A stretch of 61,597 nt of DNA, counting the filler, from Nemertoderma westbladi (Eukaryota; Animalia; Xenacoelomorpha): assembly GCA_032718475.1 (NCBI GenBank). It is 2 parts of 2 records of this genome, joined end to end, with 100 filler letters (N's around TTAATTAATTAA, not from the genome) between each part and the next. Parts side by side here need not be neighbours in the genome. Positions count along the whole stretch, not along the records: positions 30,800 to 61,597 come from JAUCBJ010005558.1; 1 more part is not named here. One strand, 5' to 3'. The notes under the pieces are model-generated. The model was not told the DNA's origin and ran no database searches. It saw only the letters and a program-made list of their open reading frames with translations. Of this stretch, positions 20,725-58,424 are shown piece after piece (the first letter of the stretch is position 1; the number at the start of each line of letters is the position of its first letter). The translations under genes were made by a program, and so were the position numbers.

Positions 20725-21116
20725 CTAAGGAAATAAAATAATATTATAGGGTAAAAAAAAGGCTAGGAAATTACATTTAAAAATATAAATATAAGTTAAC
20801 GTATAATCTTCATTTATCATTATCAACCACAGCAGGATATCTTCCGGTAGTTATTATTAGTTTAATATTGAGACGCACACCGGCCGTCCGCACATACACC
20901 ACTAACTAACACGATCGCAATGGACATTTACTCAACTACTTAAATGGGATACAAACAAGTGGTTGTCCCCATCAAATAGGAAACAGGTCGGGAGTAACCG
21001 CTGTCGTTATAAACGTGGATGGGAAGGAGCAGGTTAGGGTGCGGGTTATTCCAATCAACAATAGACAAGCGACATGGGCAATAATTGCAGTTTCAATTTC
21101 GATTACAAGAACGGGA

Positions 21117-21869
21117 TGTCTGCTGTCGGATGAGGTTGTCTGCTGTCGGATGAGGTTGTCTGCTGTCGGATGAGGTTGTCTGCTGTCGAATGAGGTTGTC
21201 TGCTGTCGAATGAGGTTGTCTGCTGTCGAATGAGGTTGTCTGCTGTCCAATGAGGTTGTCTGCTGTCGAATGAGGTTGTCTGCTGTCGAATGAGGTTGTC
21301 TGCTGTCGGATGAGGTTGTCTGCTGTCGAATGAGGTTGTCTGCTGTCGGATGAGGTTGTCTGCTGTCGGATGAGGTTGTCTGCTGTCCAATGAGGTTGTC
21401 TGCTGTCGGATGAGGTTGTCTGCTGTCGAATGAGGTTGTCTGCTGTCGAATGAGGTTGTCTGCTGTCGAATGAGGTTGTCTGCTGTCCAATGAGGTTGTC
21501 TGCTGTCGAATGAGGTTGTCTGCTGTCCAATGAGGTTGTCTGCTGTCGAATGAGGTTGTCTGCTGTCGAATGAGGTTGTCTGCTGTCGGATGAGGTTGTC
21601 TGCTGTCGGATGAGGTTGTCTGCTGTCCAATGAGGTTGTCTGCTGTCGGATGAGGTTGTCTGCTGTCGAATGAGGTTGTCTGCTGTCGAATGAGGTTGTC
21701 TGCTGTCGAATGAGGTTGTCTGCTGTCCAATGAAGTTGTCTGCTGTCCAATGAGGTTGTCTGCTGTCGGATGAGGTTGTCTGCTGTCGGATGAGGTTGTC
21801 TGCTGTCCAATGAGGTTGTCTGCTGTCGAATGAGGTTGTCTGCTGTCGGATGAGGTTGTCTGCTGTCGG
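21117..21869. repeat. 20-bp satellite (about 37 copies) in Meteorin intron 3
   Basis: Unit tgtctgctgtc[gg/ga/ca]atgaggt with three interspersed variants. Confidence 0.97.
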
Positions 21870-26880: not shown

Positions 26881-28202
26881 GGTGGGTGAGTACAAAACCA
26901 AGACCCAAGACCCAACGACTCAAAACCTGTACAAAATGTAGTTTTGTAAATTTCCCCCTGTTGCCAAGGCCATTTTGACCCTTAATTAAGCTAATTATTC
27001 GTGGAGCCCTTGATTTTCTAATTCGCCACACTTTTGCAATTCATCACAGCCATTTTCATGCTTTTTAGATTTTACGAATATTGGCCATTTTTAAAGCATA
27101 ACAGACTCCAACTCCACTCTCACTATACGGAAATATTAAACATTCAAGAACATTTTTATATACTGGTGAGTTGTGATCTGTAAGACTGTAACTGATAGAC
27201 TCAAATACGATTGATCCAAATTCCAAATAATACGATAGGCAAATACGATAGCTATCGTAGGTCTGTGCATACGATAACGAATACTAACTTCAGCCAAACT
27301 TACACTACACAAGGCCTACACTATAATGTGTGCTGGTACATAGAGGTGGCTGTATAACTGTAACTGTATAGGTAACTGTATATTAGGGAGGTGCGTTTTT
27401 CACTTTTTTTCGATTTCATTGTTCTTCTACAGGTGCACAAAAGTTGCCAAATGGTAAAAAATTAAGACAAAATTTTTTTTGAAGGTGTCTAGGTCCCACT
27501 AAATCGGGCATTGCGATTCTAATGACTAAAAGTTGGCCATTGAGAATAATCGTCATTTGCGCCAAAGGGTAGTTTCTGGCCATGTGCCTGTGGCACTAGT
27601 TCCCTTGATCCAAAAATTAAAATGTTGGTATCTAACTAAGTTTGGACCCATTTGATGACATCTGATGCATGCAGGAAGTTCTTTCTTGAGTCATTGGTCT
27701 TTCATTAATGTGTTATATTGTTATAAATTTCATTATGGTGCCTCGCGAAGGCTCAAAATTTCAACCCCCTTGGGATCCGTAAAGATATCGATGAGATTTA
27801 AAGAATTTTTTTTGCCTTAATTTTTTACCATTTGGCAACTTTTGTGCACCGGTAGAACAATTAAATCGAAAAAAAAGTAAAACACGCACTGTGCCCTACT
27901 GTATGTGTGTAGAGACTATCTGTAGTTAGATCTTTGAGTCTTGCTGTGTTGCCGTGGTTTGCATGGCACTTGGCAGTTGGGTGACTACAAAACAAAGACC
28001 AAAGTCACAAAGAATAAAGACCTGCACAAAACACATGTGTTAACTTTCGTTTAATATTTTGGTTCCCCCAACATGCCTGCTCCTTTAAATGGCAATGCGA
28101 CCTGGCGGTCTTTGGGTTTTATCGCTATTTGGGGCCTAACGCAACTTTAGCTCTTTGTTTTTTACAAAAGGTCTTGGGTATTTGGGTTTGTACTCACCCT
28201 AT
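26881..28202. mobile_element. Non-autonomous TIR element, possibly Mutator-like
   Basis: About 30-bp inverted ends gggtgagtacaaaaccaagacccaagacc / ggtcttgggtatttgggtttgtactcaccc; tttaacatg (9 bp) on both flanks; a second left-end-like copy near 27979. Confidence 0.6.
27386..27896. mobile_element. MITE with about 95-bp TIRs nested in the previous element
   Basis: ggtgcacaaaagttgccaaatggtaaaaaattaag / cttaattttttaccatttggcaacttttgtgcacc; TA on both flanks. Confidence 0.75.
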
Positions 28203-30799: not shown

Positions 30800-31123
30800 C
30801 AAGAATCCCGTTCAACACATGTAATCAGCAGTGAGACAGGATAATTTCAGTTCAGTAGCTCGGGATTGGTCGAAATCAGAACTAACTCAACGCAGGGCTA
30901 TGGGTAACTGGGGCAACCTTCCCAAGCCGGCTGGCCAATCGAACAGCTCAGATCCCTCCTAAAGGATTCCAACGCCTTGGAGGGGGGAACTGGTTAGCAA
31001 AGAAAACAAATCAGTCATATCCCAGAAAAACCTTTACAGTAGGTTTCAGAGTATTTTTAGCGTATGGGGGAAAAACTGGGTTGCGGGGCGAAGGGCCAGT
31101 TACATCCCACAGAAGCTTTTACA
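30800..31123 (-). mobile_element. Partial LTR of a related BEL/Pao family, opposite orientation, cut by the contig end
   Basis: Starts TGTAAAAGCTTCTGTGGGAT at 31123; shares tttgctaaccagttcccc, gcttgggaaggttgcccc and ctactgaactgaa with the LTR at 31298. Confidence 0.85.
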
Positions 31124-31297
31124 CGATTTGTCTTGGTTGATTGTAATATTTGCTTGACACACCTTTCTAAAACATTGCACAATAACATCAATAATTTGTG
31201 AATGTTTTTCTCACCCATTCCGACATCATCACAATCTTCAGATCTTCTGAATATTTAATCCAGTTAGTGCGCAGTCACCACGATAAGAGAAACGTCG
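31124..31297 (-). pseudogene. Decayed Gypsy RT, continuation of 45491-45790 across the BEL insertion
   Basis: After GD(V) it reads SYRGDCALTGLNIQKI with a frameshift, then a degenerate (V)DD region. Confidence 0.7.
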
Positions 31298-32500
31298 TGT
31301 AAAAGCTTTTGTGGGATAACTGATTCGTTTGCTTTGCTAACCAGTTCCCCCCAAGGCGCTGGAATACTCAAAAAGGGATCTCTAGCTCGAATAGTGCAAG
31401 CTACCGGCTGATTGGCTGATTTGCTGTACGAAGGGATCTGGGCTATGTTCGATCGTCCAACCAGCTTGGGAAGGTTGCCCCATAGCCCTGCTTTCTGTAT
31501 CTGCCAATAGGATTTGAGTTGGTTTTGATTTTGACCTATCACAGATCTACTGAACTGAATTTCCTATCTGTATGCTCATTCTCTGTGGTGGGTGAGATCT
31601 TTGTAGAATAAGGGTAGCTGGTATTCTTATAGTTATTCTTATCAGTATTCAGTGTTGGTTATTCTAAGCCAGGAAGAACGGCTTTGGAGTATTTTTGTGC
31701 TTTTCTGCTTTAGCCTTACACTAGTAGGCTTAATTATAAGGACATATATCCGTTATCTGCATACCGCAGTACTGCATACTGCAGTACTGCATACACTGCA
31801 TACTGTGTAACACTGTGCATACTTTATATTGTTATACTGCTATTTACTGTCAGTTCTTCATAATATGGTTGATGAATTATTATATTTGGAATAACGATAA
31901 ATAATCCCGAAAACCCAATATTCTTGATATACCGAAGGTAAGAGAGAAGGGTTACATATAACGATTGTGACTTATGTTAAAGTGGTTTGAAGTGAATCTA
32001 ATGTTATTTGATAGACCCTACATGAGTCGGTCTGTGTTCCTTTTATATGTGACTAAAATCAGTGGAGATCGGCAGATTATTGTGCAGTATTGTGCAGCAT
32101 TGTGTATGAGTGAGACTGATAACGAAGCATTTCCTAAAGAATGCGCCATATATGTGAATTATAACTAAGCCATATCGTTGTGAGTAGTTTAAGTCATAAC
32201 TCTGTTTATATAGATAGAGCGCCACGTCCTAAAGGAACTGTTAATATTCCCCGAAGGTGAATGATATTGTCAGAGATTGTATAATACTGTCAGTCGAATA
32301 ATACAGTAGGCTTACATAGCAATACGATTAAGCCGTCGAACCCAATCTCCCGGGTATATCCAGCGGGTGAATGATCGCGCACAGATTGGTTTCGACTAGT
32401 GTAGTGAATCAAATACTTGTCAGAGGCTAAAAGTGATTTATTATATAGAAGACATCCTAATTTGGCGGGTTGAACTGCCAAAGGTCTGAAAGCGCGAACA
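31298..32500 (+). repeat. 5' LTR (1203 bp)
   Basis: TGTAAAAGC...GCGCGAACA; near-identical to 44287-45490. Confidence 0.96.
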
Positions 32501-32650
32501 ATAACGGATATCTAGTCTGTATTGCAGTGTAGGCATTAAATACAGTTTAATATTGTTCTGGTAAGAACAATAACGGATATCTAGTCTGTATTGCAGTGTA
32601 GGCATTAAATACAGTTTAATATTGTTCTGGTAAGAACAATAACGGATATA
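32497..32650. repeat. About 70-bp tandem duplication starting at the LTR end
   Basis: aacaataacggatat recurs near 32497, 32566 and 32635. Confidence 0.85.
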
Positions 32651-32914
32651 GCTTCTGTATTGCAGTAGGCAATAAAGCTGAAGTACTGGCAACCGGTACC
32701 CAGTAGGCCTGACTACCTAACCACCCGGACCGGTACCTACAGCAGTACAGGTACAGCAGTATTATTCGATTTGATTATTGTATACTGTAGGCTGCCAGGG
32801 GAATAGGGATTGATCACCCCTCATTCTTTTGTATAGTTTACTTGTTTCTGTCAAGTTTTATTTATTTGTAGGCCAGTATTGAGCAGAAGGCGTGCAAGCC
32901 TGCTCAGATTGTAC

Positions 32915-33490
32915 AGATAATTTGTAGGCTTGACTGTTGGCTAACTGTTGATTAGGTCTGAACGGATTACAGTGCATGTAGAGTGTATGTCCGATAAAGA
33001 ACGGTTAGGAAGTAGGGGCAGCCAAAGCTGTAAGGTAAACCCCCAACTAAAGAATAATTCGTACTACTGGGTTAGAACGCATACTACCTAATCATTTCGG
33101 AGTCTGCATGTCCTGTAGTTTATTTAGGCTTGAGAGTAGTCTGCCATCGTTTAGTCTGTACTTTGTTAGTATAAGTCTGTACAGGTAGCGTATAATATTT
33201 ATTTAGATAATTTGTAGGCTAGATAGTTGTCTGGCTGTTGTTGGGTCTGAACGGATTGCAGTGTGTGTGGATCATCTGTCCGATAAAGAACGGTTAGGAA
33301 GTAGGGGCAGCCAAAGCTGTAAGGTAAACCCCCATCTAAAGAATAAGTCGTACTACTGGGTTAGAACGCATACTACCTAACCATTTCGGAGTCTGCATGT
33401 CCTGTAGTTTATTTAGGCTTGATAGTAGTCTGTCAGTATTTGGTCTGCATTTTGTTTGAGTGGTTTGTACGCGTAGCGTAATATTTATTA
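32915..33490. repeat. About 290-bp tandem duplication in the element leader
   Basis: agataatttgtaggct..gtccgataaagaacggttaggaagtaggggcagcc..gtagcgta occurs twice. Confidence 0.9.
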
Positions 33491-34918
33491 TTCAGAGTTT
33501 ATGCGATTATTCGCAACATTCATTCCCCAAGTTTGTTCCTACAATAATTGTGTTTGTTATACATACCGTTATAGTTAAACTAACCCCGGTACTATACGGG
33601 CTGCTCGGCGTAGGTAAAGACTGGTGATTTTGTGCACCGGTCACTCCAGCAGATGCCGTGGTTCTTTTAACTGTTCAAGTATATTTAACTACTGATTATC
33701 TGTTGTACAAGTACTCGTACCTAATTTAGGGTTTAGTGTACAGTGCTTTCCGAAAGTAATTAGTGTAGGCATTATATTTGTGTTGTAAAGTGGTTGATAG
33801 GCACGTTCGATTAGCTCTATTAACTTCTAGGTAGGAACACTCCGTGATACATAACGTAGTACCTATAGCGATACGGCTATAGGTCGTCAGGCGGTGGTAT
33901 TTTCCTATCTGGACAACGCAGTGTATTTACTACTACGTATTATTTTCAAATACCGCAGTACCCTGTCCGTTGTAATAACCAGATTTCTAACCCTTTGTTA
34001 GGCTGGTTTGTAGACTTCTTGTAAAATTACCCTGAAAATTCGTATTTTGTGTTTTTTGTAAATTTTTGTGTTTATTTAGAGATTGTAATCTCACCCGAAT
34101 TGTACGTAATTTGTAGTATTAAGTAACTTAGGTAAATTAGCATTATTTGTTTTAGTGTCCTATAAGTAACACTTCACTGAAAGCGCACCGCTTTGTGTAG
34201 TGATTACGCCCCAGAAATAATAACATTTATTTCAAACATTGACAAAACCCATTAAAACGGGTATATATATTATAAATCAACTCAAACGATTTATAAATAG
34301 TAGGCCTGCCATACAACAATTAGGTCTCAATATCAGTTGGACTACTGCTTAAATAACGGTAATAAAGTAAGTTAAAGTAACCAAGTAACCCTTAAAATTC
34401 AGAAATTCAATTATTCTAAAATAATTGACATACCGGTATTTACAATAGGCTTATTATATTTATTTCTATAAATTTTAGGTTGAAATCATACTGGTATTCT
34501 GTAATTAATTCTCGTCTGTAATTATACTTATATATATACATTATAAGTGTAAGCTGTATACCGGTATTCACGATAGGCCTATTATATATTTATATATATT
34601 TGTGCTAAAATTATATACCGGTTTCTGTGAAAAACCTAGTCTGTAATAATACTTATATATATACCATAAGCATACCGGTATTCTAATATTATATATATCA
34701 CGCTACACTGAGTAGCAGTATCGGTAATTAATTACTAGGCTAGCAGTTAATACTGAATTACTAGACTTGCTTGGACTGTAATATAGCAGTAGGCATTCAA
34801 CTGTACAACCAAACATGTCTGACTCACAACAAACATTGTCAGATATTCTCTTAGAGGGTGTTAGAATGAGTATTAGACTTAGACAGCGTCTTAAAAGGAT
34901 CTGTGACCAAGATCAAGT

Positions 34919-37900
34919 ATGGAACATCCCAGACCAAAGTCTAAGTCCCCTCCTACTGTGCGAAAGATCATCCCTCAAGTAGTAGTATCAGACACTAGGC
35001 TAGTCCAACATCGTAGGTCTATCATAGGCACTCGAGCTCAGGTCAAGCGGGACCAAGAAGCAGCGGAACCGCAACAACCCGCGAGCCAAGAACTTACTTC
35101 TCAACGGCCTGATAGCTCCAGTAGTTCGGATACTGTTGAGCGGACGCCCGAACGCGGAGCGAAGATGGCGGATAAGGTTTATGATGAGCGGCCAACCTAT
35201 GAAGAATCAACCGACGCCACTTCTTCTCAAGAAGAAAGCGAAGTGACAGCAGAGAAACCGCATAAGAGGGATGCTATTGACATCTATCTGTCAGACTATC
35301 AACGCTTTGTAGGAGATGAAGAGTTGAGGAGAAGGCTGGAGGGGCTTAGCCCTAATAGTGAAGGAACCAAGCTTGTGTTGGATGCCATCGATGCGGAAAT
35401 GTTAGCTGCGAACCAAGCTAAATTTGATGAACTCCTCCGCATCACTAGAGTCCAAGAAGAGCAAGTAAAGAAAAAACTTATAGAAGACAGAAAGGCGGCG
35501 GCAGTAGCAGCAGCCGTGGCAGCGGCAGAAGCTGAAAGAAAAGCGGCCGAAGTGGAAAGAAAGGCGGCAGCGGCAGCGGCCGAAGTGGAAAGAAAGGCGG
35601 CAGCGGCAGAGGCCGAAGCGGAAAGAAAGGCTGCAGAGGCAGTGGCAGAAGCAGAACGGAGAGCGGCTGAAGAAACCACCCAACTAGAATTGGAAAACAT
35701 TCAGGAGAATCAAGACTGCATAAATAAACAGTTAACAGCTAGTCAAATGCATATGATGGGTCGATCTACTCCCAAAAGACAGGGATATACATCATCTGAG
35801 GAAGGCGATACCACCGATACTGAAGGCAAAGGAAATAGATCTCGTCTAAGCAGACGTAGAAAAACATCCCACCATCAGAAATTGCCTGATTTGCCTCCAG
35901 CTGTTAGAAGGCAACTAAATAACACCAACTTAGGTAGTACAGAACCCACAGACCAAATAATTAAAATAGAAAGACTCCCTACTATAGTAGATGAGCCGGA
36001 AATAATTAGGCCTGTTCTTGAAATCACCCCTTCGGTGATAGACACACCTGTGCTCCCTGAAGTTACCTCTAAATTCCCTCTGCACAGCACTAAGCTACCT
36101 GTGCCCAGTAGAACAGCCCATGAGACAGTTCAGGTCCTGGACCCCGAGCGAAATATTCATGATTTGTCGCCCGTTGTCCCTCGTCCGCCCGCTACAACGT
36201 TGGCGACTCCCGCTTCGGCGGTCGAATGGGTGGATGGGAGACGGCGGGGGATGGATCTCCTGCTCGGGCAGATGCAGGAGACCGTTCAGCAATTCAAGGG
36301 CACAGTAAGGGAAAGTAGGTTAGAGTTGCAAGAAGTGCAGCAAAGTATCGCGCTAGAACGCAATAAATTAGTAAATTTACAAAAGGGTATATCACCACCC
36401 CCTGTAACAATGTGTCAACCCGTTAGGTCTGAAGTATCCCATGCGCAAGGTGTGGAGCCTACACGCATCTATACTGCTAGCGAAGTAGAAACTCCTATAG
36501 TAAACCCTATTAAGGGTAATTATAAACCTGTTGATAATGATATCTCATCTAGACTTGATAATAATCCGAGAAACTTATATACCGATAATTCTCTATTCAA
36601 TAATACGATGGCCCAAGAAAGTTTTACACGTCAAATGGCTAGAACCGAAGCCCGGCAAGCGGTAAAGGTGGGAGAGATCGTCAAGTTCAATGGAGATGAG
36701 ATGAAATGGTTACCTTTTAATGAATATTATAAAGATAACGTTCAGAACTCTGTAGTATCTAATGGAGAGAAACTTAGATTCCTCATCGAGTGCTTGGAAG
36801 GATCTCCCAAGTTAATGGTGTTAAAGTTTATTGGACATCCAGATGGATTAAGACAAGTTTGGGATACACTAAACATCAGGTATGGTAATAAGACTAACAT
36901 AGCTAGGTATTTATATGCGAAATTAATGGCGCCCCGAAAGTTTCTTAGCAGCGGGATTATAGAATTTTCCGATGAGATTCAGGAGATCTGTAGACAGCTA
37001 GATTGGTTAGGTAAGTCTCATGAATACCAGAACTCTATGGTTGTAGGAGCCTTAGCATCTACTTTACCAAAGGGTGGAGTAGGTACACACTGGGACAAGA
37101 AGGTGTTATATATGATGGAACAGCAACAACGAGACCCTACCATGGCTGATCTCATGTCATTCTTGGATAGCGAGGTGAAATTACAGCTCATAAAGCAGTC
37201 CAGAGAGAAGACAGCGGAAAGTAAGGTAAGTGAGAAACCCGTTTCTAGGAGAAGGGTAACACCAGTATGTTATACCGACGACGGTGAAAGCCAAACCTCT
37301 CAAGGAGAGGACAGCGGGAAAGACACTGACAGGTCTTATTATGTCAATAAAATGCCTAAAGATCAGGTAAGTAAATCCAAGTCTCGACCCAATGACAGAA
37401 GGGAACCGGTACAAAAAACCCCTCCTACGTCTCCTAAAAGAATTCAGGTGAGAAAGCCCGAGGAAAGAACAAGTGTGCACCACATAGCACAGGTTAAAGT
37501 AAGTAACATCAAGCCGAAATGTGTGCTGTGCGACGGGCCCCACCGTTTAAATGCGTGTGATAAATTCCTGAGGAAATCACTAAAGGATAGACGTGAAGTC
37601 ATGTGGGATAAGCGGTTGTGTTATAATTGCCTCAGACGAGGACACCAACGGCGAACCTGTTACTCCGACGCAAGGTGTGCAAAGTGCGGCGCAAAACATC
37701 ATATCTTGTTGCACACGGAATTCGAACGAAACAGCCCGAGTCAGGTAAGTGAGTCCGAACTACATGTCCAATTCAGTGATGTGAACGACACTGATCAATC
37801 TGAGATGGAAGGATTCTATACGGACGAGTTCTCCGACGAAAACGAATCCTGTTACTTAATAAACACCACCGCAGTGTATCGAGCACTCGTGCATGAGAAA

Positions 37901-37933
37901 GACACAGGGAAAGCGCTCGTTGAGTTTGGTTAG
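34919..37933 (+). CDS. gag: BEL/Pao Gag (1004 aa as currently terminated inside the insert)
   Basis: DUF1759-type KFNGDEMKWLPF..EKLRFLIECLEG; triple knuckle CVLCDGPHRLNAC / CYNCLRRGHQRRTC / CAKCGAKHHILLH; Ala/Glu coiled-coil repeats. Confidence 0.93.
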   Translation: MEHPRPKSKSPPTVRKIIPQVVVSDTRLVQHRRSIIGTRAQVKRDQEAAEPQQPASQELTSQRPDSSSSSDTVERTPERGAKMADKVYDERPTYEESTDATSSQEESEVTAEKPHKRDAIDIYLSDYQRFVGDEELRRRLEGLSPNSEGTKLVLDAIDAEMLAANQAKFDELLRITRVQEEQVKKKLIEDRKAAAVAAAVAAAEAERKAAEVERKAAAAAAEVERKAAAAEAEAERKAAEAVAEAERRAAEETTQLELENIQENQDCINKQLTASQMHMMGRSTPKRQGYTSSEEGDTTDTEGKGNRSRLSRRRKTSHHQKLPDLPPAVRRQLNNTNLGSTEPTDQIIKIERLPTIVDEPEIIRPVLEITPSVIDTPVLPEVTSKFPLHSTKLPVPSRTAHETVQVLDPERNIHDLSPVVPRPPATTLATPASAVEWVDGRRRGMDLLLGQMQETVQQFKGTVRESRLELQEVQQSIALERNKLVNLQKGISPPPVTMCQPVRSEVSHAQGVEPTRIYTASEVETPIVNPIKGNYKPVDNDISSRLDNNPRNLYTDNSLFNNTMAQESFTRQMARTEARQAVKVGEIVKFNGDEMKWLPFNEYYKDNVQNSVVSNGEKLRFLIECLEGSPKLMVLKFIGHPDGLRQVWDTLNIRYGNKTNIARYLYAKLMAPRKFLSSGIIEFSDEIQEICRQLDWLGKSHEYQNSMVVGALASTLPKGGVGTHWDKKVLYMMEQQQRDPTMADLMSFLDSEVKLQLIKQSREKTAESKVSEKPVSRRRVTPVCYTDDGESQTSQGEDSGKDTDRSYYVNKMPKDQVSKSKSRPNDRREPVQKTPPTSPKRIQVRKPEERTSVHHIAQVKVSNIKPKCVLCDGPHRLNACDKFLRKSLKDRREVMWDKRLCYNCLRRGHQRRTCYSDARCAKCGAKHHILLHTEFERNSPSQVSESELHVQFSDVNDTDQSEMEGFYTDEFSDENESCYLINTTAVYRALVHEKDTGKALVEFG

Positions 37934-39747
37934 TTAGTTTGTTTGAAGGGTTTGTTTGGTTTGGTTGTCAGAAGGTTTGTTAGTTAGTTAAACAATGTAA
38001 ACAACAAATAACATTAATCATTACGGAAAAAGATAGAAAATAATGGAACATAAGTTTCTGAAACAGCAATAAGAATAACTATTTCAAAGATTATTGATAT
38101 TTATTTACCTGAGAACCAAGGAAATCGATCGTAGTTCAAGCACATGATAAGGTTCTACTTACTTTATCATATCGGCCTGTTGTTTCTCCACATACTCCAG
38201 CAGTTCAGCTCGCGTTTCATTATCCCATATAAGGTAAGGATTCTCTGTGTTGCTGTTCAACAGTTTCAGTATATCCATGCTGCTCACCGTCGTGTTGGTC
38301 ATCTGTTTGCAGACGAACCGCGTGAGTAACGCATTGAGACTCTTACAGACAGTCGCGTTCTCCGGAGTCGCGGTCCCGTTGTTGTCGTGGTAACCAGCCA
38401 ACCGGGACAGCGCGCGGATACTGAGTTTAGCGAGTTGATTCGCCACTTCCTGCTGGTTGGACTCGGCGCTCCTCTCCACGCCGCCCTCCTCCAGGGTGTA
38501 ATCGTAGTTGAAGAGGAAGAGGAGGATATGCCAGATGATTCCGGCGAGGAACAGATGGTTCTGGAGGTAGTAGTCGACGGAGAGTGCGGAAGCGCAACGG
38601 ACGACTTCGCAACAGACGTTGGAGAGATTCCGGAAGTAGAGGATCCGACAGAGATCGCGAATAATCACGGGGAGTTCAACGATGCGTTCTCGACACGGCC
38701 CGAATTGCGCCGCCACGGTGTAGCACTGCGCCACATGGAAGCAGACGAGAGCCGGAGTATCGGAACCTCGACTCGATAAGCCGAGCACGTCGACGCATCG
38801 AGCCAACGCCCGCTGCAACGTCTCCACTCCGCACTCGCGTCGCATCTCTTCCGCGTTCAGCGCCGAACAGTCGACCGTGTGGTAGGCGAGCTGCACCGCC
38901 GCGGGGAGAATGTCCACCGGTTTGTTGAATAAACAATCGTCTTTGGTTTCCGAGTCGATGGTGGTGATTAACATTGGGTAACCCGCGTACTTATACGGGG
39001 AAAGAACCTCCGAACATCGGGTAAATAAGATACTCTGAGAGCGAAGTAACAGTTTAATATTCTCCGGTTTCGGTCCGATATTCCGCGAGCTGGCTTTACT
39101 GCAGAGGAAGTCGTAGGCTTTATTGACCGCTTCGAAAATCTCCCGCCCTTCAGGGTTCTTGTCGGGATGGTATTTCTGCGCCATACGGAAGTATGCGTGA
39201 CGTAATTCGTTGTCGGGGTAACCCCCGGGTTTGGGGGTCAGGTTGAGCGCGGCGTGCGCTTCGTCCCAGCTAAGCGACGGGGGTTTCCTGTCTACCTCCT
39301 CCCGCCACGCCTCCAGGATGTCCTTGAGCAGACGAACCGGCTCCTCCAGCGGCCAGTCCGGGAACCGAGTCTCGTCGCACAGATGCCGCATATAGTAGAT
39401 GTTGACGAACAACTTGTCCTCCAGCTGGGGGTAGCTCACCGCCGGGATCGGGCAGAACTGGTACACCGATTGGCTGTTGCTCAGCAACCGGGGCGTGAAG
39501 TCTGCGATGTAGGTGGCTATCTTCTCGATCATCAACCTCCGCATCTCCGCGCTCCAGATCGCCTCGGGGGTGTCGAACTCCCCGAGGAACATTCCCGCGA
39601 AGCGTTCCGCCCCGTGGTTGACCAGGTAGTAGACCATGGCCTCGGGGAGGATGGAACCCAGCACGGAACGGCCGTCGGTGGGGTCCTCGGAGCGGAACGC
39701 TTGCACCGAGTGGGAGCGCTGGAGGAACCGGGCGATCGGCAGCCGAT
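37917..39747 (-). pseudogene. DNAJC13: Inserted DNAJC13/RME-8 fragment: coding 39747-38163 (includes the J-domain) plus intron start 38162-37917
   Basis: [71 protein letters not shown]; ends AA|GTAAGT; flanked by GGAAAGCGC at 37908-37916 and 39748-39756. Confidence 0.95.
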
Positions 39748-41057
39748 GGAAAGCGCCAACTTCCAATATAGGAATCCGAGAATTTCCTGTAGTCCAGTTA
39801 CGGGTCCACGGACCTCAGAAGAGCTATATAGTGAACGCCCTCCTGGACTCCGGTAGCACAGGAACATTCATCGATAAAGAACTAGCCGAAGTCATCTTTG
39901 CTGGACAACCCAAGTTCCGAACCAAGCTAAACATGTCAGGGATCATGCATGTTTGGAATTCTACTGTAGCTGCCGACTATTATATAGGTGAGTTGTTCAC
40001 TCCACAGGATAAACTAGGAGAATACAGTATAAGGTCAGTCAAAATGGTGGCAATAAAGAACTTCGCTACCACCCAAGTGGAACCTTATAATTGGGACGAA
40101 GATGATCATGCCCAACAACTTAACATCCCTAGATTCGACACCGATTATCCTGGAGTACAAATATTAATCGGTCAAAACGCGCATGAGGCGCTGGAGACAT
40201 TAGAGAAACGACCTGCTCAACCGCAACCACTTCAGACCTATGCGGTAAGAACTAGAGTAGGTTGGTACCTTACTGGACCTTCCCGAAGAACGCTCAGAGA
40301 AAGACTGCTTCAAGATCGTGTCTGCCAGGTGAGTGAATGGGAAGACGATACTAGTGAGGGAGACGACCCAACTGAGGGAACACCATACTCCTCAGATAAT
40401 GATGATATTAGCTCCACTGTAGATCAATGGAGATATTGCCCCAAGAAGTTTAATCCAACTGACATCGCTTCCAGAGGAGCAACTCCTCAAGAACTGACAG
40501 ATACTACAGACCGGTTAGGTGAACCCGACTTCCTGAGTAAGGAGGATGAATGGCCTCCCCATCTTACTCCGACTGAGATTAGACCAGCCAAGGGAGCGGA
40601 GAAAGTCAAACCTAAAACCCGGACGGGTGGAGCAGAGTTATTTGAACCCGGGATAGATCTGTCGGTATTACATATTGCCAGGGACGACGCCGTGGATCTG
40701 GACCTCCCCACCGCGAGTGGATCCTTCATGAAGATCAGAGGGAGCGATTGGAGCTCTGGAACATCAGACGTCTCGCAGGGACTCTTACCTCTCCTGCAGG
40801 GAGCGACGGACCACTATAGCTCCTGGAATCGGCTTTGTAACGCCGTCATATACTTTGAGCGATGTTTCTATCGTCACTATTCCAGGACGAAGAGGAAACC
40901 TGGAATTGTATTCGGGATGCAGCGACTCAATCACCCAGTCGGTCGTTTGTGTTTACCGGAAGGGAATGGAGGACTCTCCGGAAACTGTGGAAGGCAAGAT
41001 TCTCTTCCCACGACCACCTCCCTAATCCTTCAAACATCTAGGGACTCCATAATGTAA
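39748..41057 (+). CDS. BEL aspartic protease fused to the RNase H C-terminal remnant (RT deleted, no integrase)
   Basis: [26 protein letters not shown], then [25 protein letters not shown] and YSSWNRL; no RT or integrase motifs seen. Confidence 0.88.
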
Positions 41058-41576
41058 CAACATATGGAGTGGGTGAGTGACTCTATTATTTTATATTATT
41101 TTATTATTTTTATATTTCTGTATGTATTACTATGTAATTTTATCTTAATCGTTTTATTTAATTTTATTTAGTAACATGTTATTTTAGCGAGCATTTAGTA
41201 GGTTAATGCAATATATTCGCATTTATTACGTAATTACTTATATTATATATTTAGTGCGACGGCGAGAAATAATTCTTTTTCTCCTTCCTTACTGCCCGTA
41301 TTACATTATAAATACGAGACTACAGTAAGATGAAAGGTCCATACTTATTAAAGTACAATAAAGCCACTACTATATTTAAGTATTATTGGTAGGCAGAGTA
41401 TTAGGAATGCAAAGTTCAGATCCTCGTGTCTCGGCTAAACCAAGCTCTGGGTAGACCTTGGAAACGACTTGCCTCTTCACACTGACATTGCTTCGTGCGA
41501 TATTGCTCTCATACCGTATATTAAATAATACATATAGTAGCGTGATGTCCCTTTAACAGTAGCGTATAACGCAAAA

Positions 41577-41885
41577 TAAATCTGTTAAACCTTTTGACCA
41601 TCTGTAATTCTAGTCGATTAAGATATCACGGCACCCACCGATATACTTGAAAGACAAATTCTAGAATCAGTGGTTAACGTCCCCAGACAAGTTCTGGAAT
41701 AAATCGGTGCCCATCTCAAATATTAATTATTTAATATTTGCAAATCTAATAAGTCAAAATCTGTAAAATTCAGATCCTTCAACAATTCTAGTCAATTAAG
41801 ATATCGTAGCATTTACCGATATTCTTAAAAGGACAATTTTCATAGAATTAAGGATCTTGTGTCCCCAGACATGTTCTAGAATCAA
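41577..41885. repeat. Diverged tandem duplication, period about 180 bp
   Basis: aattctagtc.attaagatatc..accgatat..gtccccagaca.gttct occurs twice. Confidence 0.7.
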
Positions 41886-43187
41886 AATATGTCAATTTAA
41901 TTATCAAATAATAAAATTTCAGGGAATAAATTTAAATTCATGCCTTTAATGAATTTAATAAATTGCCATTTTTACGCAATTTATAGCATTCCCAAAATTC
42001 CATTAATTAATAGATCAAGGGAGCGGAGATTTATCTTATTATGCGTATGAGTGTGCGAAAGTCTCCCAAACATAGTCAATAGCCGATAAAATTCATAAAG
42101 TCATGTATAAAACAGGACATTGACCATTAAAGAATTACTATTAAATAACATCCCAGATCTGTATGCATTGGAATTACCCTAATTCTACCGCTAGCTTTGC
42201 ATAATGTCACCATAGCAACAACCACGCTAGAATTAGAATTGAGTTAAAAGAACAATAGAAAGCTTGTCCCATTGAATAGCATAGGAAATAAATAGCGCAC
42301 TGCTAGTATCCAAGGATACATAATAATACAGTGACATTCTGGAAGGCATTGACTAACGGACAAATGGCCCGAGTGTGTGTAATTTGTGACAAGTTGTGTG
42401 TGTGGTATTTGTGAGTTTATAGGCGAATGTTACTACTAAGGTGTGTTTACAGTAGCGAGTCGCAATTGTGAAAGTAACCCTAACTCTCCAGTAAGAACCT
42501 GAGGTGTATCTAAGCCTTTGGGACGGACAGTCGAGTGACTTGTACCGGTTGTCGTTGTGCGGCTACGTCGTTGGCGAAAGTACAGCGGCGACGACACATC
42601 GGTGCTGAGGATCTCGCACTGTCCGGGGGCTGATTGGGGTAGGCAGCGACGCTCGCTAGCCTAAATATAAACTCATTATAATATGGATAAACTCATATAT
42701 AGCAGATATGACGGAGTTGATAGAAGATGGTCTTGGTATCGGGGAGCGATATACTCTACTTTCAAACGTTTGTTGATAGCTTGATACGCGGTGATATTAG
42801 TCCAACTACTACGAAGGATGATGGTCGTTATATCGAACCTACGATTTCCTGGAAGTAACTTACGCGTGAATTGGACTATGGAAAATTCACCGCTCGCTAC
42901 ACGCATTGTAATGGTATGTATATGGACTTCTTAACCATTGACCATTCTATCGATTTACACGATACGGACTATGTCGAACATATCCTACCCAGAGGAGTCG
43001 AAACGATAAACCAAAATTCTAATGCGAAAATCCTATTCGAAACAAACTCGAAAGAGAAGACGTTGAAGAACCTGATAAACGTAACGGTTTCAACGATTAT
43101 CTAGAATTCCTAAGAGAGACCTATCTCAATGTTGCCAGTCAACAAAATCTCGAAACTCGATATCCTCAAGGTATACATCCAGATCCT

Positions 43188-43763
43188 ATGATGGAACTCA
43201 AACGGCTCTATTTTACGATGATGTATCTTACCGCCGATCAACCGCTACCTGTCGTTCCAGATAGCTTCGAACAGATGGAGGAATATTGTAAAACTGGAGA
43301 GCGATCACCCGCGTTTCCCCTTCAAGACGTGCGTCTTTGGTATTACTGTGACGAATGCCCCAGACCTAACCAGCAAATCGAAAGGCATAAACATCCGCGG
43401 AGACGTTGCGCTAAACACAGTTTTACGCGATATACTTATGGGAGTTTCGAGCGAAACCTTTTCGACGTATCACCTACGGTCGCGCGCCTTAAGCGATCAT
43501 TGAATAAACCCATGATCAGAGTTCCGGAATACTCGGTCAGACCTCCTCATTCCCAAGTGATACCTCAAACTCTCGATCCTAATAGTAGTACGGATCCTCC
43601 CGAGCTGTACTTACCGTTCAGAGATCCAGTGTTACCCGAACCGTTAGTCGGTGGCACTCAGGTTGTGGGCTCCCTAAATATCCGCCCATCTTACCTGGCC
43701 GGATTGGGGCACGGGCACCCGATATCGCCATTCAATCGTATAATCGGAATCATTCCCGTTTAA
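43188..43763 (+). CDS. Unknown 3' accessory ORF of the LTR element (Cys/His-rich), probably part of a longer decayed ORF
   Basis: 191 aa from the ATG, frame open further upstream; CDEC..H.H...C..H; no recognised family. Confidence 0.4.
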   Translation: MMELKRLYFTMMYLTADQPLPVVPDSFEQMEEYCKTGERSPAFPLQDVRLWYYCDECPRPNQQIERHKHPRRRCAKHSFTRYTYGSFERNLFDVSPTVARLKRSLNKPMIRVPEYSVRPPHSQVIPQTLDPNSSTDPPELYLPFRDPVLPEPLVGGTQVVGSLNIRPSYLAGLGHGHPISPFNRIIGIIPV

Positions 43764-44286
43764 CACGATACCACCTGTCATCAAGGTGGAGGAGAGCGTT
43801 GTACGAAAAGAGATAGACGCTATTCTACAAAGATCAGAAAAGAAATCTACGTTTGCTCAGATAAACCTAAATTATAACAGCAAGTCCAAGCGGTAAACGG
43901 ATTGGCTTTATCCCAGTTCGATTGGGAAATCCATAGTCTCTAAGACGATATTGAACTTGGACGACCCTATTCTCGGCGAGAGTTTTAGACGAACGTATCC
44001 AACGATGAGCGGAGGAAAATCAGCTCGAGGAGAAACATATTGAAACGGCGGATACCCCGACTATAATCCCACACCTTCTGATGCAATCATATTGCACCCT
44101 TCACCCAGGAGTTATAGCCCTCCTTGTAAAGTGGCTCGCCCCAAAGAGAAAAAGACTCTTGTTAGCTTTAAAAAACTGCGTAAACGCCGTCTGCGCAAGA
44201 AAGACTAACTGTTTAGAGTATTCTCGTATTTTAGAAACTGTGATTTTGTATATTTTATAGACTTAAATCCCATTTTCTGGGAGCGG

Positions 44287-45490
44287 TGTAAAAGCTTTTG
44301 TGGGATAACTGATTCGTTTGCTTTGCTAACCAGTTCCCCCCAAGGCGCTGGAATACTCAAAAAGGGATCTCTAGCTCGAATAGTGCAAGCTACCGGCTGA
44401 TTGGCTGATTTGCTGTACGAAGGGATCTGGGCTATGTTCGATCGTCCAACCAGCTTGGGAAGGTTGCCCCATAGCCCTGCTTTCTGTATCTGCCAATAGG
44501 ATTTGAGTTGGTTTTGATTTTGACCTATCACAGATCTACTGAACTGAATTTCCTATCTGTATGCTCATTCTCTGTGGTGGGTGAGATCTTTGTAGAATAA
44601 GGGTAGCTGGTATTCTTATAGTTATTCTTATCAGTATTCAGTGTTGGTTATTCTAAGCCAGGAAGAACGGCTTTGGAGTATTTTTGTGCTTTTCTGCTTT
44701 AGCCTTACACTAGTAGGCTTAATTATAAGGACATATATCCGTTATCTGCATACCGCAGTACTGCATACTGCAGTACTGCATACACTGCATACTGTGTAAC
44801 ACTGTGCATACTTTATATTGTTATACTGCTATTTACTGTCAGTTCTTCATAATATGGTTGATGAATTATTATATTTGGAATAACGATAAATAACCCCGAA
44901 AACCCAATATTCTTGATATACCGAAGGTAAGAGAGAAGGGTTACATATAACGATTGTGACTTATGTTAAAGTGGTTTGAAGTGAATCTAATGTTATTTGA
45001 TAGACCCTACATGAGTCGGTCTGTGTTCCTTTTATATGTGACTAAAATCAGTGGAGATCGGCAGATTATTGTGCAGTATTGTGCAGCATTGTGTATGAGT
45101 GAGACTGATAACGAAGCATTTCCTAAAGAATGCGCCATATATGTGAATTATAACTAAGCCATATCGTTGTGAGTAGTTTAAGTCATAACTCTGTTTATAT
45201 AGATAGAGCGCCACGTCCTAAAGGAACTGTTAATATTCCCCGAAGGTGAATGATATTGTCAGAGATTGTATAATACTGTCAGTCGAATAATACAGTAAGG
45301 CTTACATAGCAATACGATTAAGCCATCGAACCCAATCTCCCGGGTATATCCAGCGGGTGAATGATCGCGCACAGATTGGTTTCGACTAGTGTAGTGAATC
45401 AAATACTTGTCAGAGGCTAAAAGTGATTTATTATATAGAAGACATCCTAATTTGGCGGGTTGAACTGCCAAAGGTCTGAAAGCGCGAACA
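44287..45490 (+). repeat. 3' LTR (1204 bp)
   Basis: By eye it differs from the 5' LTR at about three sites (two substitutions, one 1-bp indel). Confidence 0.96.
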
Positions 45491-45790
45491 CGTCGCCAGT
45501 CGACACAAACCCCATTGGTGAAAGTAAAAATTTAAATTTACCATAGGGAGTAATGAAAGTTGTCAAAGTTTGAGAATCAACATGTAGTGGCATTTGCCAA
45601 TATCCGCTGACGAAATCGTGTTTAGCAAAATAACAATCGGTTTGTTTAAAACCACCTACTGCTTCTGCTGGTGTTTTAGTTGGGTATGAAGTGCGCTCAA
45701 CTTGGGTGTTTAATTTTGTAAGATCGATACAAATTCTTATCTCCCCCCCTGGTTTTGGAACCACAACTAGTGGGTGGCTCACTGGTTGAA
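45491..45790 (-). pseudogene. Gypsy reverse transcriptase fragment (target of the BEL insertion)
   Basis: HPLVVVPKPGGEIRICIDLTKLN..DFVSGYWQMPL..LTTFITPYGKFKFLLSPMG. Confidence 0.9.
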
Positions 45791-46285
45791 TAATTTATTT
45801 GTCTACCATCTCGTCCAATATAGTTTTCACTTATCTTGTAAAGCATATGGTATGCTGCGTCGGGGGCGTGGACTTTCGACGCAATCAAAACTCCTATGTC
45901 TCCAAGCGGCCAGGGGAAAGTCGACGCAAATAACGCCTGATTACTCCCAAAAATAACAGTGTAACCGGATTTATTACGACAGAAAAAATTATTGCGACAA
46001 AGTACCGTATACCCCGTGTTTTCAGAATTAACTGATTTCTGGGATTGAAATCCCCCTTACAGCTGTCACACTTCTTTGCCTTTGATTCCTTGGCGCAAAT
46101 GATTTCTACTTGTTCGTCAACTTCAATTGATGACTGATTAAGGTTCGATTGTAATGTTCTGGAAATACCTTGGTCCGGTATGTTATCGGCAACTAGTACT
46201 TGACATGACACACACACTGCACTACTGCACACGGCTGTACATACACTGTACTGCTGTATGCAGACAGGTACGTACTAAAAGGTAG

Positions 46286-46849: not shown

Positions 46850-47462
46850 GTGGGGCGAGACACGTAGTCGGCGAGCCTTGGCATACGGTTCATATAGGGC
46901 AAATGGGGCATGTCCGTCTGTCTGTCTGTCCGTCCGTCTGGTAAATGTTTGAACGCGAATTTCTCGGCATCGCGCTTTCGGAATTGAACCAAACTTAGTA
47001 GGTAAGTAGTAGAGAGAAAGTTTAGAAAGTTTGTAAAGTTTGGTGAAAAATCATGCAGTCTGACGTCAGCTACGACAGATTATGTGGTTTTTAGAAAATG
47101 TTAAATTTCTCGAGAAGGCCTCATTTTCCTGAGCTGAAATTTTGGTGGCCTGTAGAGAATCATGAAGTCTATCTTTTACGAAATTGAAAAGTTAAGACAT
47201 TTAATTGGGGATCCGCTAGAGACTCAGAAGTAATGACATAGGCCTACCGGTACGGTACTGCTGTACAGTGCTGCACTGGTAAGTACGAAATTGCAGAATA
47301 ACAATTTGACACCACCTAGCGGATTAACATATGATTGTATATCGAATGAATACATTTATAGCATGGGATATTGGGTCCAAACTAGACATGCCCCATTTGC
47401 TCTATATGAACCGTATGCCAAGGCTTGCCGACTACGTGCTGCGCGAAGTCCCCACGAACGTG
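46850..47462. mobile_element. Non-autonomous element with 54-bp inverted repeats and a (GTCY)n tract, DINE-1/HINE-like
   Basis: Inverted repeats at 46861-46914 and 47385-47438; ends gtggggcgag.cacg and gctgcgcgaag.cccacgaacgtg shared with 53466-54100. Confidence 0.65.
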
Positions 47463-48643: not shown

Positions 48644-49580
48644 ATGCAGAAATGTGTAAGTAAAAAGCTGAAAATACCCTATGGGACACTGTGGAATAGA
48701 ATTAATAAGCACCATGAGGGATTGGCTGGTCATCCTACAGCAATGACTAATGAAGTGGAAGTGAAAGTTGTACAGGCCATAAATATCTTAGCTCGTTGGA
48801 GAAAACCAATTGAAGGGATTGAAGTCTGTATGATGGTCCAAAACATGCTAAATATTGCAGGGAAAGTAGTGAAAGAATTTAACTCAGCAAGGACTCAAGC
48901 AGGACCCGAGACAAACCTTCCAGGACGCGATTGGCTTGAAATGTTCCTTGTTAGACACAAGCTAACCAAACGCATCGCAGACAATGTTACTCCCGCAAGG
49001 GCAGAGGTTGGCGAGAAGCAACTTAATGCCTTCTTTAACAATTACGAAGCTGAAGTAACAGATGTGATTCCACCATCTAACATTTTCAATTTTGATGAAA
49101 CCAATGTGAGCAACCAGCCCAGCAGCCTGGGGACAAAAGGGTTATCTGCAAGCGTGGTTTGAAACGTGTGGAGCGTATTATCTCAAAATCAAAACAGGTG
49201 GTCTCTCTTATGTTCAGTGGGTAATTTATTGCCTCTTATGGTGATATATAAAGCTGGAAGATACGATCCGGAATGGGGAATAGGGGGGCCATCCGGCACA
49301 ATTTACGATGCAACAGAATCAGGATGGTTCGATGGTTTCGATGTACTTCGAGGTATTTCTATCAGCTGCCAATAAACTGAATGTGAAAAAATTCTTATTG
49401 GTGATAATCTGTCTAGCCACCTCTCTATTAAAGTTGTTCTTAGCTACAAATCAAATAATATTAGTTATATTCCTCTTGTTCCTAATGCCACTCACATACT
49501 ACAACCCTTGGATGTGGCCTTTTTCAGACCTCTGAAGACAGCTTGGCGGGCAATACTAACCAAGTGGCGTATTGAATCTG
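48644..49580 (+). pseudogene. Frameshifted pogo/Tigger-type (CENP-B/DDE_1) transposase
   Basis: IPYGTLWNRI HTH, PGRDWLEMFLVRH, IFNFDET, GDNLSSH, PNATHILQPLDVAFFRPLK; a likely left end TA|CCGTA with gctactttgat repeats at 48304-48370. Confidence 0.88.
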
Positions 49581-53488: not shown

Positions 53489-54455
53489 CGAAGCCTTAGC
53501 ATATGTGTACCATTAACGAGTTGTCTGTCATCGTTGACGTCGTAAATTTTTGATCACTAATAACTCAGTCATTCCTTGATGAATTTAAACGAAACTTGGT
53601 ACGTATGTAGTCCGGCGAATGTTTAGAAAGAATCTTAGAAAGAAAGAGAATAGAAATAATTTTTTGGTAAAAAAAAAACGAACGAACGCAACGAGTTTAC
53701 AGTGGATACGAGTATCCATCTGCCATAAATCAGCGGTTACTCTTACAGTTTCGACACTTTGCATAGTTATAAAGGTCGTTATTCTCCTTTTAGGAAAATT
53801 ATTTTAAGACAAAACAGAATGAGCGCAACGCGGCTAATGAAGGAGAAGAGTATTGTAAAACTAAAAATGTCATACTTAACTTAAATAGCTCTAGTTAGAA
53901 GGTTTACAAATGACAGTTAAAGTGTGTAAGGGCAAACTGAAATGGATCTCTATTTTTACAACTAGATTATCACAAACTGATAGCATGCCTTCACTCATAT
54001 AAATTTTGTGAATGACTGTTTTCTTATATCTAATAGAGATTAGTATAATGTACTTTCTAATATAGGCTCTCGTGCTGCGCGAAGGCCCCACGAACGTGCA
54101 CCACTCTGCAGTAAGCCCACCGAACTAATACAGTTGTTTACACAGTATTCAGGTATTACGGAATCCGGGAAGAACGGCAAGGATGTTTATCTGATCGCTT
54201 CTAAAATTCCAAAATAACCTGCCAGCGGCTATAAGCATTTTAAAATCATTATTAGTTTGCTAAACCGACCCAAGTCAACACACTGAGGATTAAGTTGCGA
54301 CAGATTGTTATTTGGTGTTATGTTGCGACAGACTACTGTTAATCGATGACAGCGACTGCGACACTGTACCGGTCACGGCCAGTGGTACAGGTCTGTAGGC
54401 CTACCCTCAACCGGTAACGGATAGGTGGCTTTGGGAACGAATGTGATCAAATACA
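53489..54455 (+). repeat. 967-bp direct repeat, copy 1
   Basis: cgaagccttagc...aaataca; near-identical to 58534-59500. Confidence 0.92.
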
Positions 54456-54722
54456 AGGCAGGGTCCTGGTCAACACTTGTGATATCAAAAATGATACAAA
54501 TAAAAAAAAATCGAAAAAAATGATTAATCAAAAGAAAAAAAAATGAAAAAAAAATCGAAAAGTGATATACTGACACACTGATATAAAATGTAAGAAGATG
54601 CTAAGATGCTGATGTAGGCCTAAACTAAGTAAGGCTTTATGATTCTGGCTGACTGGGGCTACCCTACCACTAGCTGACTAGTCAAAATACTAGACGGCTA
54701 GACCAGTAGACAGACAGTCAAA

Positions 54723-54995
54723 CACGTTCGTGGGGCTTTCGCGCAGCACGATAGTACATTATACTAATCTCTATTATATATACGAAAACTGTCTTTCCTA
54801 AAATATATATGAGTGAAGGCGATGCTATCAGTTTGTGATAAACTAGTTGTAAAAATAGAGATCCATTTCAGTTTGCCCTTACACACTTTAACTGTTATTT
54901 GTAAACCTTCTAACTAGGGCTATTTAAGTTAAGTATGACATTTTTAGTTTTACAATAATCTTCTCCTTCTATAGCCTCGTTCCGCGCGTCCTGTG
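54723..54995 (-). repeat. Inverted partial copy of about 53815-54099
   Basis: aaaaatagagatccatttcagtttgcccttacacactttaactg is the reverse complement of the sequence near 53913-53957. Confidence 0.88.
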
Positions 54996-55397
54996 TTGAG
55001 GAGTCAGTTCGGGGAAGTTAGTAGTCAAAAAATTAATTATTGTAAACTAACTAAAATCTTTATATTCCGACAAACCTACAGTAGTAATATAATTTAATCC
55101 AAACCACACAAACTAATTACAAAATAATGTATATTAAGTCTAATACATAGGGTTTATATCAGTACATTGATTACGTAAAATACTTATGTCAAACAGGTTA
55201 CACATGGCAATGGTTTAAATGATGACACAATTAATTACTTAATTAATTACAATAAAGTGTTAAACCTGCAGTGATTATCAGATTGCAGTCAACGTCAAAA
55301 TAAGCAATAAATCAAAACAAGAACTTTGCAATATCACAATAAATTAATTTGTAGTATCCACGATATCCAGGTTGGAATTTATGTAGTCAGGGAGGCC

Positions 55398-58226: not shown

Positions 58227-58424
58227 TAGCTGCAGATTTGTATGATTGGATAGGGGTAACAGGGTAGGCCTATATTTTAAATAGGGCTATATGGGACAGA
58301 TACACCAGCAGGTATTAAAGTACCGGTATTTATTTGAAATCTGGCAGTCTGGGTATTGTAGAGTAGCAGAGTAGAGGGTTGTGTGGTGGTGTTCTGAGTT
58401 CTGAATGTCTGAATCAACCAAAAC

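Follow-up and report, generated by a model that had tools for sequence, protein, structure and literature searches.

How did part of a host gene come to lie, in antisense orientation, inside a young retrotransposon? This question is raised by a 61,597-nt stretch of the Nemertoderma westbladi assembly GCA_032718475.1 (hereafter the window; two records joined by filler letters, with positions 30,800 to 61,597 from JAUCBJ010005558.1), in which an insert carrying part of DNAJC13/RME-8 interrupts a long terminal repeat (LTR) element. An initial annotation had attributed the insert to target-primed reverse transcription (TPRT) of host RNA driven by a long interspersed nuclear element (LINE), and had read a perfect 9-bp target-site duplication (TSD), a 5' truncation and an A-rich tail as its marks. 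Our analysis favours a patch copied in during error-prone break repair, by template-switching gap filling with end-joining filler, to which we assign a probability of about 0.55.

The outline of the insert was confirmed by exact match. The 9-mer GGAAAGCGC is present exactly twice on the + strand of the window, at 37908-37916 and 39748-39756, and nowhere on its - strand; a given 9-mer so composed has a chance of ~6e-6. The two copies are spaced by 1831 nt (37917-39747), and the repeat extends on neither side. The - strand of the insert contains 528 stop-free codons and a J domain (Pfam DnaJ, E 4e-10). Its protein is ~60% identical to animal DNAJC13 (54-63% in the best 120 of 921 matches, with 7987 candidates scored); the best homologues, ~60% identical, are spread across many animal phyla. 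The alignment covers residues ~1120-1656 of animal DNAJC13 without large gaps and mostly spans the whole query. Judged by this similarity, which runs the full length of the fragment, the cargo is identified as a DNAJC13/RME-8 fragment with an HPD J domain, as first proposed. A PDB sequence search returned J domains only. No terminal inverted repeats (TIRs) were found at the insert ends (5/44 end positions match), and neither strand has a CTAG end of the Helitron type, a capture-type terminus. Capture by a Pack-MULE/TIR element or a Helitron was ruled out, as the insert has no termini of its own.

To locate the source of the fragment, we used contig sets assembled from public runs (X1-X6; X2 is recorded as the sample of X1, whereas X3 belongs to a different sample and study). 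A separate parental DNAJC13 locus, which the initial annotation had proposed to look for, was seen: X1 and X3 contigs continue past both insert ends. One X3 contig (record 12, 3969 nt) aligns to 38132-39742, from which it differs 13 times, before running on for 2358 letters unlike the window, and X1 and X3 DNA contigs match 37974-38130 and then diverge. X2 contigs follow the parental path beyond the 39742 end and through a 264-nt stretch that is missing from the insert. An alternative in which the window would simply be the DNAJC13 gene, its introns carrying the elements, was ruled out because tblastn with six homologues found no other DNAJC13 exon within the window; the exon also breaks off within the coding sequence, and past both insert ends the parent is unlike the window.

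Comparison with the parental contigs revealed that the insert is unspliced. An X4 contig (record 19, 2994 nt) matches 38163-39742, continues with 147 other letters, matches 38130-38108 and then leaves the window, so that it exits at both GT donors, 38162 and 38108; from this splicing alone we infer that X4 is an RNA run. By hand translation, its loose end ahead of the insert reads FILMYTGSNL and the one past the second donor AEYLHSLRAL, and both resemble the homologues. Window positions 38129-38109 encode IDFLGSQ, and the 147-nt gap places this motif at the homologue distance in 72 of the 94 homologues with an anchor motif (1/94 is off by one residue and 21/94 are without the pattern). The genomic gap was given by an X2 contig (record 10) as 510 - 159 - 87 = 264 nt. 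Of these deleted parental letters, 117 belong to intron A and 147 to exon B; a single base at 38131 takes their place.

Read on the - strand, the insert thus has an exon/intron/exon/intron order with two retained intron starts, which were overlooked in the initial annotation together with their splice donors. It begins with 1580 nt of a large DNAJC13 exon, cut mid-exon (38163-39742; 526 codons plus 2 nt, J domain at ~39092-39217, five non-synonymous differences from the parental contigs), and continues with the first 31 nt of intron A (38132-38162, GTAAGT donor at 38162; X4 matches 38163-39742 only, whereas DNA contigs continue to 38132). The internal deletion junction at 38131 is documented by X2 record 10, by the X4 joint with its 147 letters and by a 61-nt X1 contig (record 2) identical to the window across it. 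There follow the last 22 nt of exon B, encoding IDFLGSQ (38109-38130; positions 2471-2493 of X4 record 19, with the motif at equal distance in homologues), and the first 135 nt of intron B (37974-38108, GT donor at 38108-38107), at whose donor X4 passes to the next coding exon. The fragment is cut where the 5' truncation had been placed, but it is cut at the other end as well and has lost 264 nt internally. The parental exon is at least 1580 nt long; its third positions are rich in GC (0.46 to 0.92 by block across 38163-39742), and CpG depletion is absent there (observed/expected 1.21).

Neither the proposed TSD nor the proposed tail fared well against uninterrupted and parental contigs. In all three contigs that join the site in uninterrupted family copies (two in X4, one in X6), 41 other letters lie between 37907 and 39747; one of them was scored as 61 letters from 37887, which is the same length. 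Loose-ended contigs agree with a replaced site, both at 37907 (16 contigs; nine in X1, seven in X2) and at 39747 (28 contigs; 10 in X1, 18 in X2). The empty site expected from removal of the insert and one 9-mer, which was thought to restore Gag in frame, was found in 0 of 4 joint rows (437 contigs). The repeat itself is perfect, but GGAAAGCGC is accompanied by a loss of ~41 nt of target and is not a clean TSD. The right copy (39748-39756, + strand) is the element's own sequence, whereas family copies differ at the left one (37908-37916, + strand), where the ~41 nt of element are missing. At the insert's other extremity, the X1 parental contig departs from the window at 37974 into a G run, so that 37917-37973 (57 nt, - strand) is non-parental. 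These terminal letters, which follow an intron and had been taken for the A-rich tail, contain 49% A, in runs no longer than 3. The sole AATAAA lies at 38105, ~130 nt upstream of the parental 3' end, and the insert end has neither a poly(A) tail nor a signal in the 10-30 nt before it.

The fillers carry signs of local copying. In the 57-nt filler, 31 nt fall within 6-mers shared with the 40 nt of intron next to it, a cover equalled by 41 of 6112 control 40-mers (37 of 6112 windows at k=7), and no nt is covered by the element-side flank; by its composition it reads as a patchwork of imperfect copies of the adjacent intron end. At the opposite end, 39743-39747 (5 nt, non-parental, - strand) repeats in inverted form a 5-mer lying 3 nt away, as in a fold-back, with a chance of ~8/1024. 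Taken together, the event combines a 9-nt repeat, a loss of ~41 nt, three non-parental fillers (57, 1 and 4-5 nt) and one internal jump.

Under the break-repair reading, a break within the LTR element would have been followed by short rounds of priming and release, which produced the repetitive filler as well as the 9-nt repeat and the fold-back. The cargo would then have been supplied by a longer stretch of copying that jumped once, with the DNAJC13 locus, a cDNA made from its pre-mRNA or an older duplicate as template, and rejoining of the ends would have closed the patch. The 9-nt repeat at the left junction would be a templated copy of the right flank; read in this way, the insert resembles a class 2 templated insertion without being a clean member of that class. 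Repeated template switching is consistent with the four irregular joins found within 1.9 kb, and the unspliced source with its two GT donors favours a patch over mRNA retroposition. As in gap filling and class 2 insertions, the donor locus is intact elsewhere (X1, X3), and the target deletion with non-templated or locally templated filler is what break repair leaves. Human class 2 templated insertions are described with micro-deletions and non-templated bases and without poly(A) (PMC5110952), end joining by Pol theta with imperfect 5-8-nt repeats templated from adjacent sequence (PMC2895639, PMC7407515), and single-copy captures in animal transposons are mostly ascribed in PMC8277862 to transposition-independent gap filling.

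Several observations weigh against this reading. Perfect direct repeats arranged as in TPRT are a trait of class 1 (the LINE type), and class 2 insertions are described without a TSD (PMC5110952), whereas a 9-nt repeat is present here. Gap filling usually leaves 1-36 bp of microhomology (median 2) at one end or more, as reported in PMC8277862; here none is clear by eye and at most 1-2 nt occur at 39746-39747, and fillers mask the joins. Pol theta synthesises 1-25 nt per round according to PMC7407515, so a tract of this length requires another polymerase or a ready-made fragment. The 57-nt filler is of low complexity, which makes the control of 41/6112 lenient, and position 39747 also fits the element family, which shortens the fold-back to 3-4 nt and makes the chance argument weaker. 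Templated insertions at breaks have been argued to derive from reverse-transcribed RNA (PMC5110952), and this sequence fits DNA and pre-mRNA templates alike. Finally, non-synonymous change in the insert affects 5/1216 sites (0.41%) compared with 0.083% per LTR (P 0.047, rising to 0.09-0.11 with more cautious counts), an excess that is hard to fit with insertion long after integration of the element.

The LINE explanation can be kept in modified form, as TPRT of a broken or nascent DNAJC13 pre-mRNA, with priming on the + strand after the 9-mer, a stutter giving the 57-nt tract, one jump between RNA pieces and ~41 nt lost when the left flank was resolved. The geometry fits, with the 9-mer on both sides and a repetitive tract at the RNA 3' end. 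Non-LTR enzymes are capable of reiterative priming, and the two begun, retained introns exclude a processed retrocopy only, as class 1 insertions can be intronic. Integration by such enzymes also includes non-templated bases and template jumps (PMC2881922). Against TPRT, there is no poly(A) and no signal nearby, both of them required of class 1 insertions (PMC5110952), and no LINE open reading frame (ORF) was recognised among the window ORFs scanned. In the standard model, duplication and target deletion are alternative outcomes of second-strand nicking (PMC2881922), though both are present here; a separate deletion ending 0-2 nt from the repeat would be a coincidence in so young an element. 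With an unspliced source, no poly(A) and the target loss, the three marks invoked for the LINE lose their support, and we consider this route unlikely. Capture inside a particle, by template switching of a helper-supplied LTR reverse transcriptase so that host RNA replaced a stretch of the element during the last or an earlier retrotransposition, appears more improbable still. The family is abundant, element contigs are deep in X4, and the insert seems no younger than the integration; LTR-mediated retroposition, by a Pao element among others, is marked by replacement of an element part and by de novo bases where the sequences join (PMC5131818). The insert shares with such retrocopies the replacement between two LTRs and differs in having neither microsimilarity nor a spliced mRNA source, and an antisense, intron-containing insert would need an antisense transcript or a plus-strand switch to nuclear pre-mRNA. 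In the cases described in PMC5131818, 25/29 junctions show microsimilarity and fillers are only 2-26 bp, in a screen that demanded exon-exon junctions and was blind to unspliced cases.

Two further explanations concern the source and the reality of the insert. The template may have been an older decayed duplicate or a deletion allele of DNAJC13, in which the 264-nt deletion and the damaging substitutions were present beforehand, or the insert may predate the last retrotransposition; this is tentative, although the most plausible of the alternatives, and is compatible with any mechanism. X1 carries the deletion junction and the window letters at 38028, 38597 and 39591, yet its contigs run into parent-like sequence past both ends, and non-synonymous change exceeds LTR divergence. 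The X1 run-on is uninformative if the assembly merged paths, since simplified contigs can do so after dropping low-depth links to a high-copy repeat, and the element body may match the insert in age. Least probable of all is an assembly chimera at the element-insert junctions, which we regard as very unlikely. No contig in X1, X2, X3, X4 or X6 bridges 37916/37917 or 39747/39748 or covers 37922-37973, an absence that tells neither way because contigs drop rare paths. The 61-nt X1 contig across the deletion junction and the X3 contigs that stop exactly at 38130 and 38132 speak against a chimera, and a mis-join does not produce a 9-nt repeat, filler with structure or, at invariant residues, substitutions of the pseudogene type.

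We also examined how many copies of the cargo exist. Summed depth in X1/X3 was 22-36 on the insert compared with ~9e4-1.4e6 on element contigs; contig depth is not copy number, but this contrast excludes amplification of the cargo together with the family. The suggestion that the element is a vehicle carrying a host gene fragment is not supported in the form of an amplified family. The 61-nt X1 contig, identical to 38101-38161, has a depth of 18.2 compared with 31.2 for the parental branch, which makes the deletion junction roughly single-copy, at about one extra copy by depth. We read the X3 stops at 38130 and 38132 as the same fork. X2 contains only the parental path at the deletion site, and X1 may represent the sample from which the window derives. 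These data support a real molecule at about one extra copy, without placing that molecule at this locus; for further insertion sites, as seen with LTR-mediated retrocopies, the depth likewise fits about one extra copy. The cargo has likely not multiplied with the element.

Analysis of the exon revealed 25 differences between the window and other contigs. Twelve separate the window from X2 and X4 contigs alike (seven synonymous, five non-synonymous); the remaining 13 are parental polymorphisms, 11 of them synonymous. X1 carries the window letter at 2 of the 12 window-private sites and is without coverage at two others. Three of the five non-synonymous changes (L>M, E>K, H>Y) fall at columns invariant in 119/119 aligned homologues; the cargo is decaying. 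The non-synonymous to synonymous ratio was 5:7 for window-private changes and 2:11 for parental polymorphism, a difference that is not significant alone (Fisher P 0.20). The excess over LTR divergence is a hint of an insert that predates the last retrotransposition or derives from an older duplicate. Against this, the body of the element may be of about the same age: among 40 of 683 rows, at least 14 internal sites have 99% or more of their X1 depth in disagreement with the window, or at least 0.16% of ~8.95 kb by hand count. A single cargo-bearing round, in which capture came first, the element then retrotransposed with its cargo and the present copy is a fresh daughter of an older chimera, is doubtful. 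If it took place, an LTR element has moved an intron-containing, antisense host fragment, gained by DNA repair, to a new site, and putative antisense RNA against an essential trafficking gene might arise, as the family appears to be strongly transcribed. Action of the cargo as a protein was ruled out, as it has no start, lies antisense and carries three of five changes at invariant columns. The cargo is a dead passenger, which interrupts Gag before the protease and has neither a start nor flanking exons; at most, the LTR promoter could yield antisense DNAJC13 RNA.

The host element spans 31298-45490 and is bounded by a 5-bp duplication, with the identical 5-mer before TG (31293-31297) and after CA (45491-45495), both on the + strand. 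Its 5' LTR (31298-32500, + strand, 1203 nt, TG...CA) and 3' LTR (44287-45490, + strand, 1204 nt, with a short purine run just before it) differ by two substitutions and one single-base indel. With only 3/1204 positions different, the element is young, in agreement with the initial annotation, as is the antisense orientation of the insert, which sits in the linker between Gag and protease. A Gag-like frame of 1008 aa, stop to stop (34907-37933, + strand), enters the insert and terminates in the filler; it contains a DUF1759 match (Pfam E 1.6e-12, residues 594-722) and three Cys/His knuckles (37520-37714, + strand), seen in translation by what we take to be the Gag knuckle pattern (weak zf-CCHC, E 0.01-0.1; P0121 residues 316-422, E 4e-16). 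A Gag search recovered two distant relatives among 1549 candidates (P0121 and P0122), both Pao-type polyproteins with Peptidase_A17 and DUF5641. In tblastn, these two matched the knuckles, weakly the protease, and a 41-residue remnant at 40425-40547. The aspartic-protease region, followed by a short remnant resembling the part after the Pao peptidase/RNase H domain, lies at 39757-41057 (+ strand; Asp_protease_2 E 0.006, below cut-off; P0122 residues 748-898, E 0.29, and 1490-1529, E 0.001). Neither tblastn with the two relatives nor Pfam searches of four internal ORF pieces found a reverse transcriptase (RT) or integrase, and we therefore file this copy as a non-autonomous BEL/Pao-like LTR element.

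The element family is very abundant, with 90,094 X1 contigs and 22,113 X3 contigs placed on 33500-45800. At 40402, near the join of the protease and the RNase H-like remnant, nine X1 contigs exit into other sequence while the majority continue; those that leave are perhaps longer family members, and the short form seems to be the majority. A 69-nt tandem repeat (2.5 copies, 32496-32666) starts at the end of the 5' LTR, and no TGG-type primer-binding site was found right after that LTR. Just upstream of it, 30823-31047 is an inverted 71-82% match to the element's LTR start and is probably an older related LTR fragment. X5, which carries another organism label, contains contigs mostly 96-99% like the element on 33500-45800 and none on the central DNAJC13 bins, which points to a close relative, contamination or transfer.

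Host fragments have been found before in LTR elements, as have templated patches at breaks, and the event shares traits with several described systems. Single-copy Pack-TIRs (Tan et al. 2021, PMC8277862) likewise hold a host genomic fragment, sometimes an exon with neighbouring intron, at the expense of a small part of the transposon, and Ssk-FB4 is described with a 45-bp de novo insertion at one breakpoint. Here, in contrast, the carrier is an LTR element and not a TIR transposon, there is no clear microhomology, and a 9-nt flanking repeat and an internal cargo deletion are present. Templated sequence insertion polymorphisms (TSIPs) (Onozawa and Aplan 2016, PMC5110952) also place sequence from a distant locus while the donor stays intact. 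The present insert mixes the classes described there, with a class 2-like micro-deletion and non-templated bases and a class 1-like direct repeat of at least 5 bp; it has no poly(A), no signal 10-30 nt upstream and no TTTT/A site, and its 1.8 kb compares with 73-414 bp for the experimental insertions reported. Metazoan LTR-mediated retrocopies (Tan et al. 2016, PMC5131818) resemble it in that LTR-element sequence, discontinuous and in part replaced, flanks a partial host gene, with Pao elements among the carriers; it differs from those described in being unspliced and antisense, in its long filler without microsimilarity, and in that no evidence of multiple sites was found. Pol theta repair and the synthesis-dependent form of end joining mediated by microhomology (SD-MMEJ) (Chan et al. 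2010, PMC2895639; PMC7407515) share short, imperfect repeats copied from neighbouring sequence, junction motifs in direct and inverted form, and deletion with insertion, although the insertions described there are short and local and the 1.77-kb ectopic tract here needs an extra step. The host element is similar to the non-autonomous BEL/Pao element Bel-21_AG (PMC3212995) in its DUF1759 Gag, knuckles, protease, LTRs and TSD and in having no RT or integrase domains; in comparison it is large (~12 kb without the insert), has long non-coding arms and has only two distant Gag relatives found. No report of DNAJC13 capture by a retrotransposon appeared in a non-exhaustive search of titles and abstract starts on DNAJC13 with retrotransposon, LTR or pseudogene.

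The insert is thus a real but fairly ordinary accident, and a single decaying copy has little consequence. It provides a well-resolved young example of host exons entering LTR elements without mRNA retroposition, and it advises caution, since a perfect 9-bp flanking repeat and an 'A-rich' end are insufficient for TPRT before the empty site and the parent are known. The locus would carry more weight if a second site had the same cargo, or if small RNAs against DNAJC13 arose here.

Other features were identified in the window. A second LTR-type element (53489-59500) has 967-nt direct repeats that are 99.07% identical, with no clear TSD at the repeat ends as aligned, and a 962-aa Gag-protease-RT frame (- strand, 55398-58286) that ends soon after the RT. 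A Gypsy-type RT remnant (45450-45794, - strand) adjoins the right end of the BEL-like element, and no clear continuation was found to the left of that element. Segments resembling miniature inverted-repeat transposable elements lie at 46861-47438 and 27391-27889, with long TIRs (54 nt at 96% and 83 nt at 89%, respectively). Highly homogeneous tandem arrays occupy 12064-16827 (49-nt unit, 97 copies, 98%), 761-4036 (28-nt unit, 117 copies) and 21117-21868 (20-nt unit, 38 copies). No tRNA genes were found in the window. A frame at 20336-20743 (- strand) has a weak Agrin NtA match (E 0.049), and by this resemblance we take it to be the probable final exon of a host gene that encodes a netrin-like domain. 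A 172-aa frame at 48644-49162 without a Pfam match presumably resembles the N-terminus of a pogo/Tigger-type transposase.

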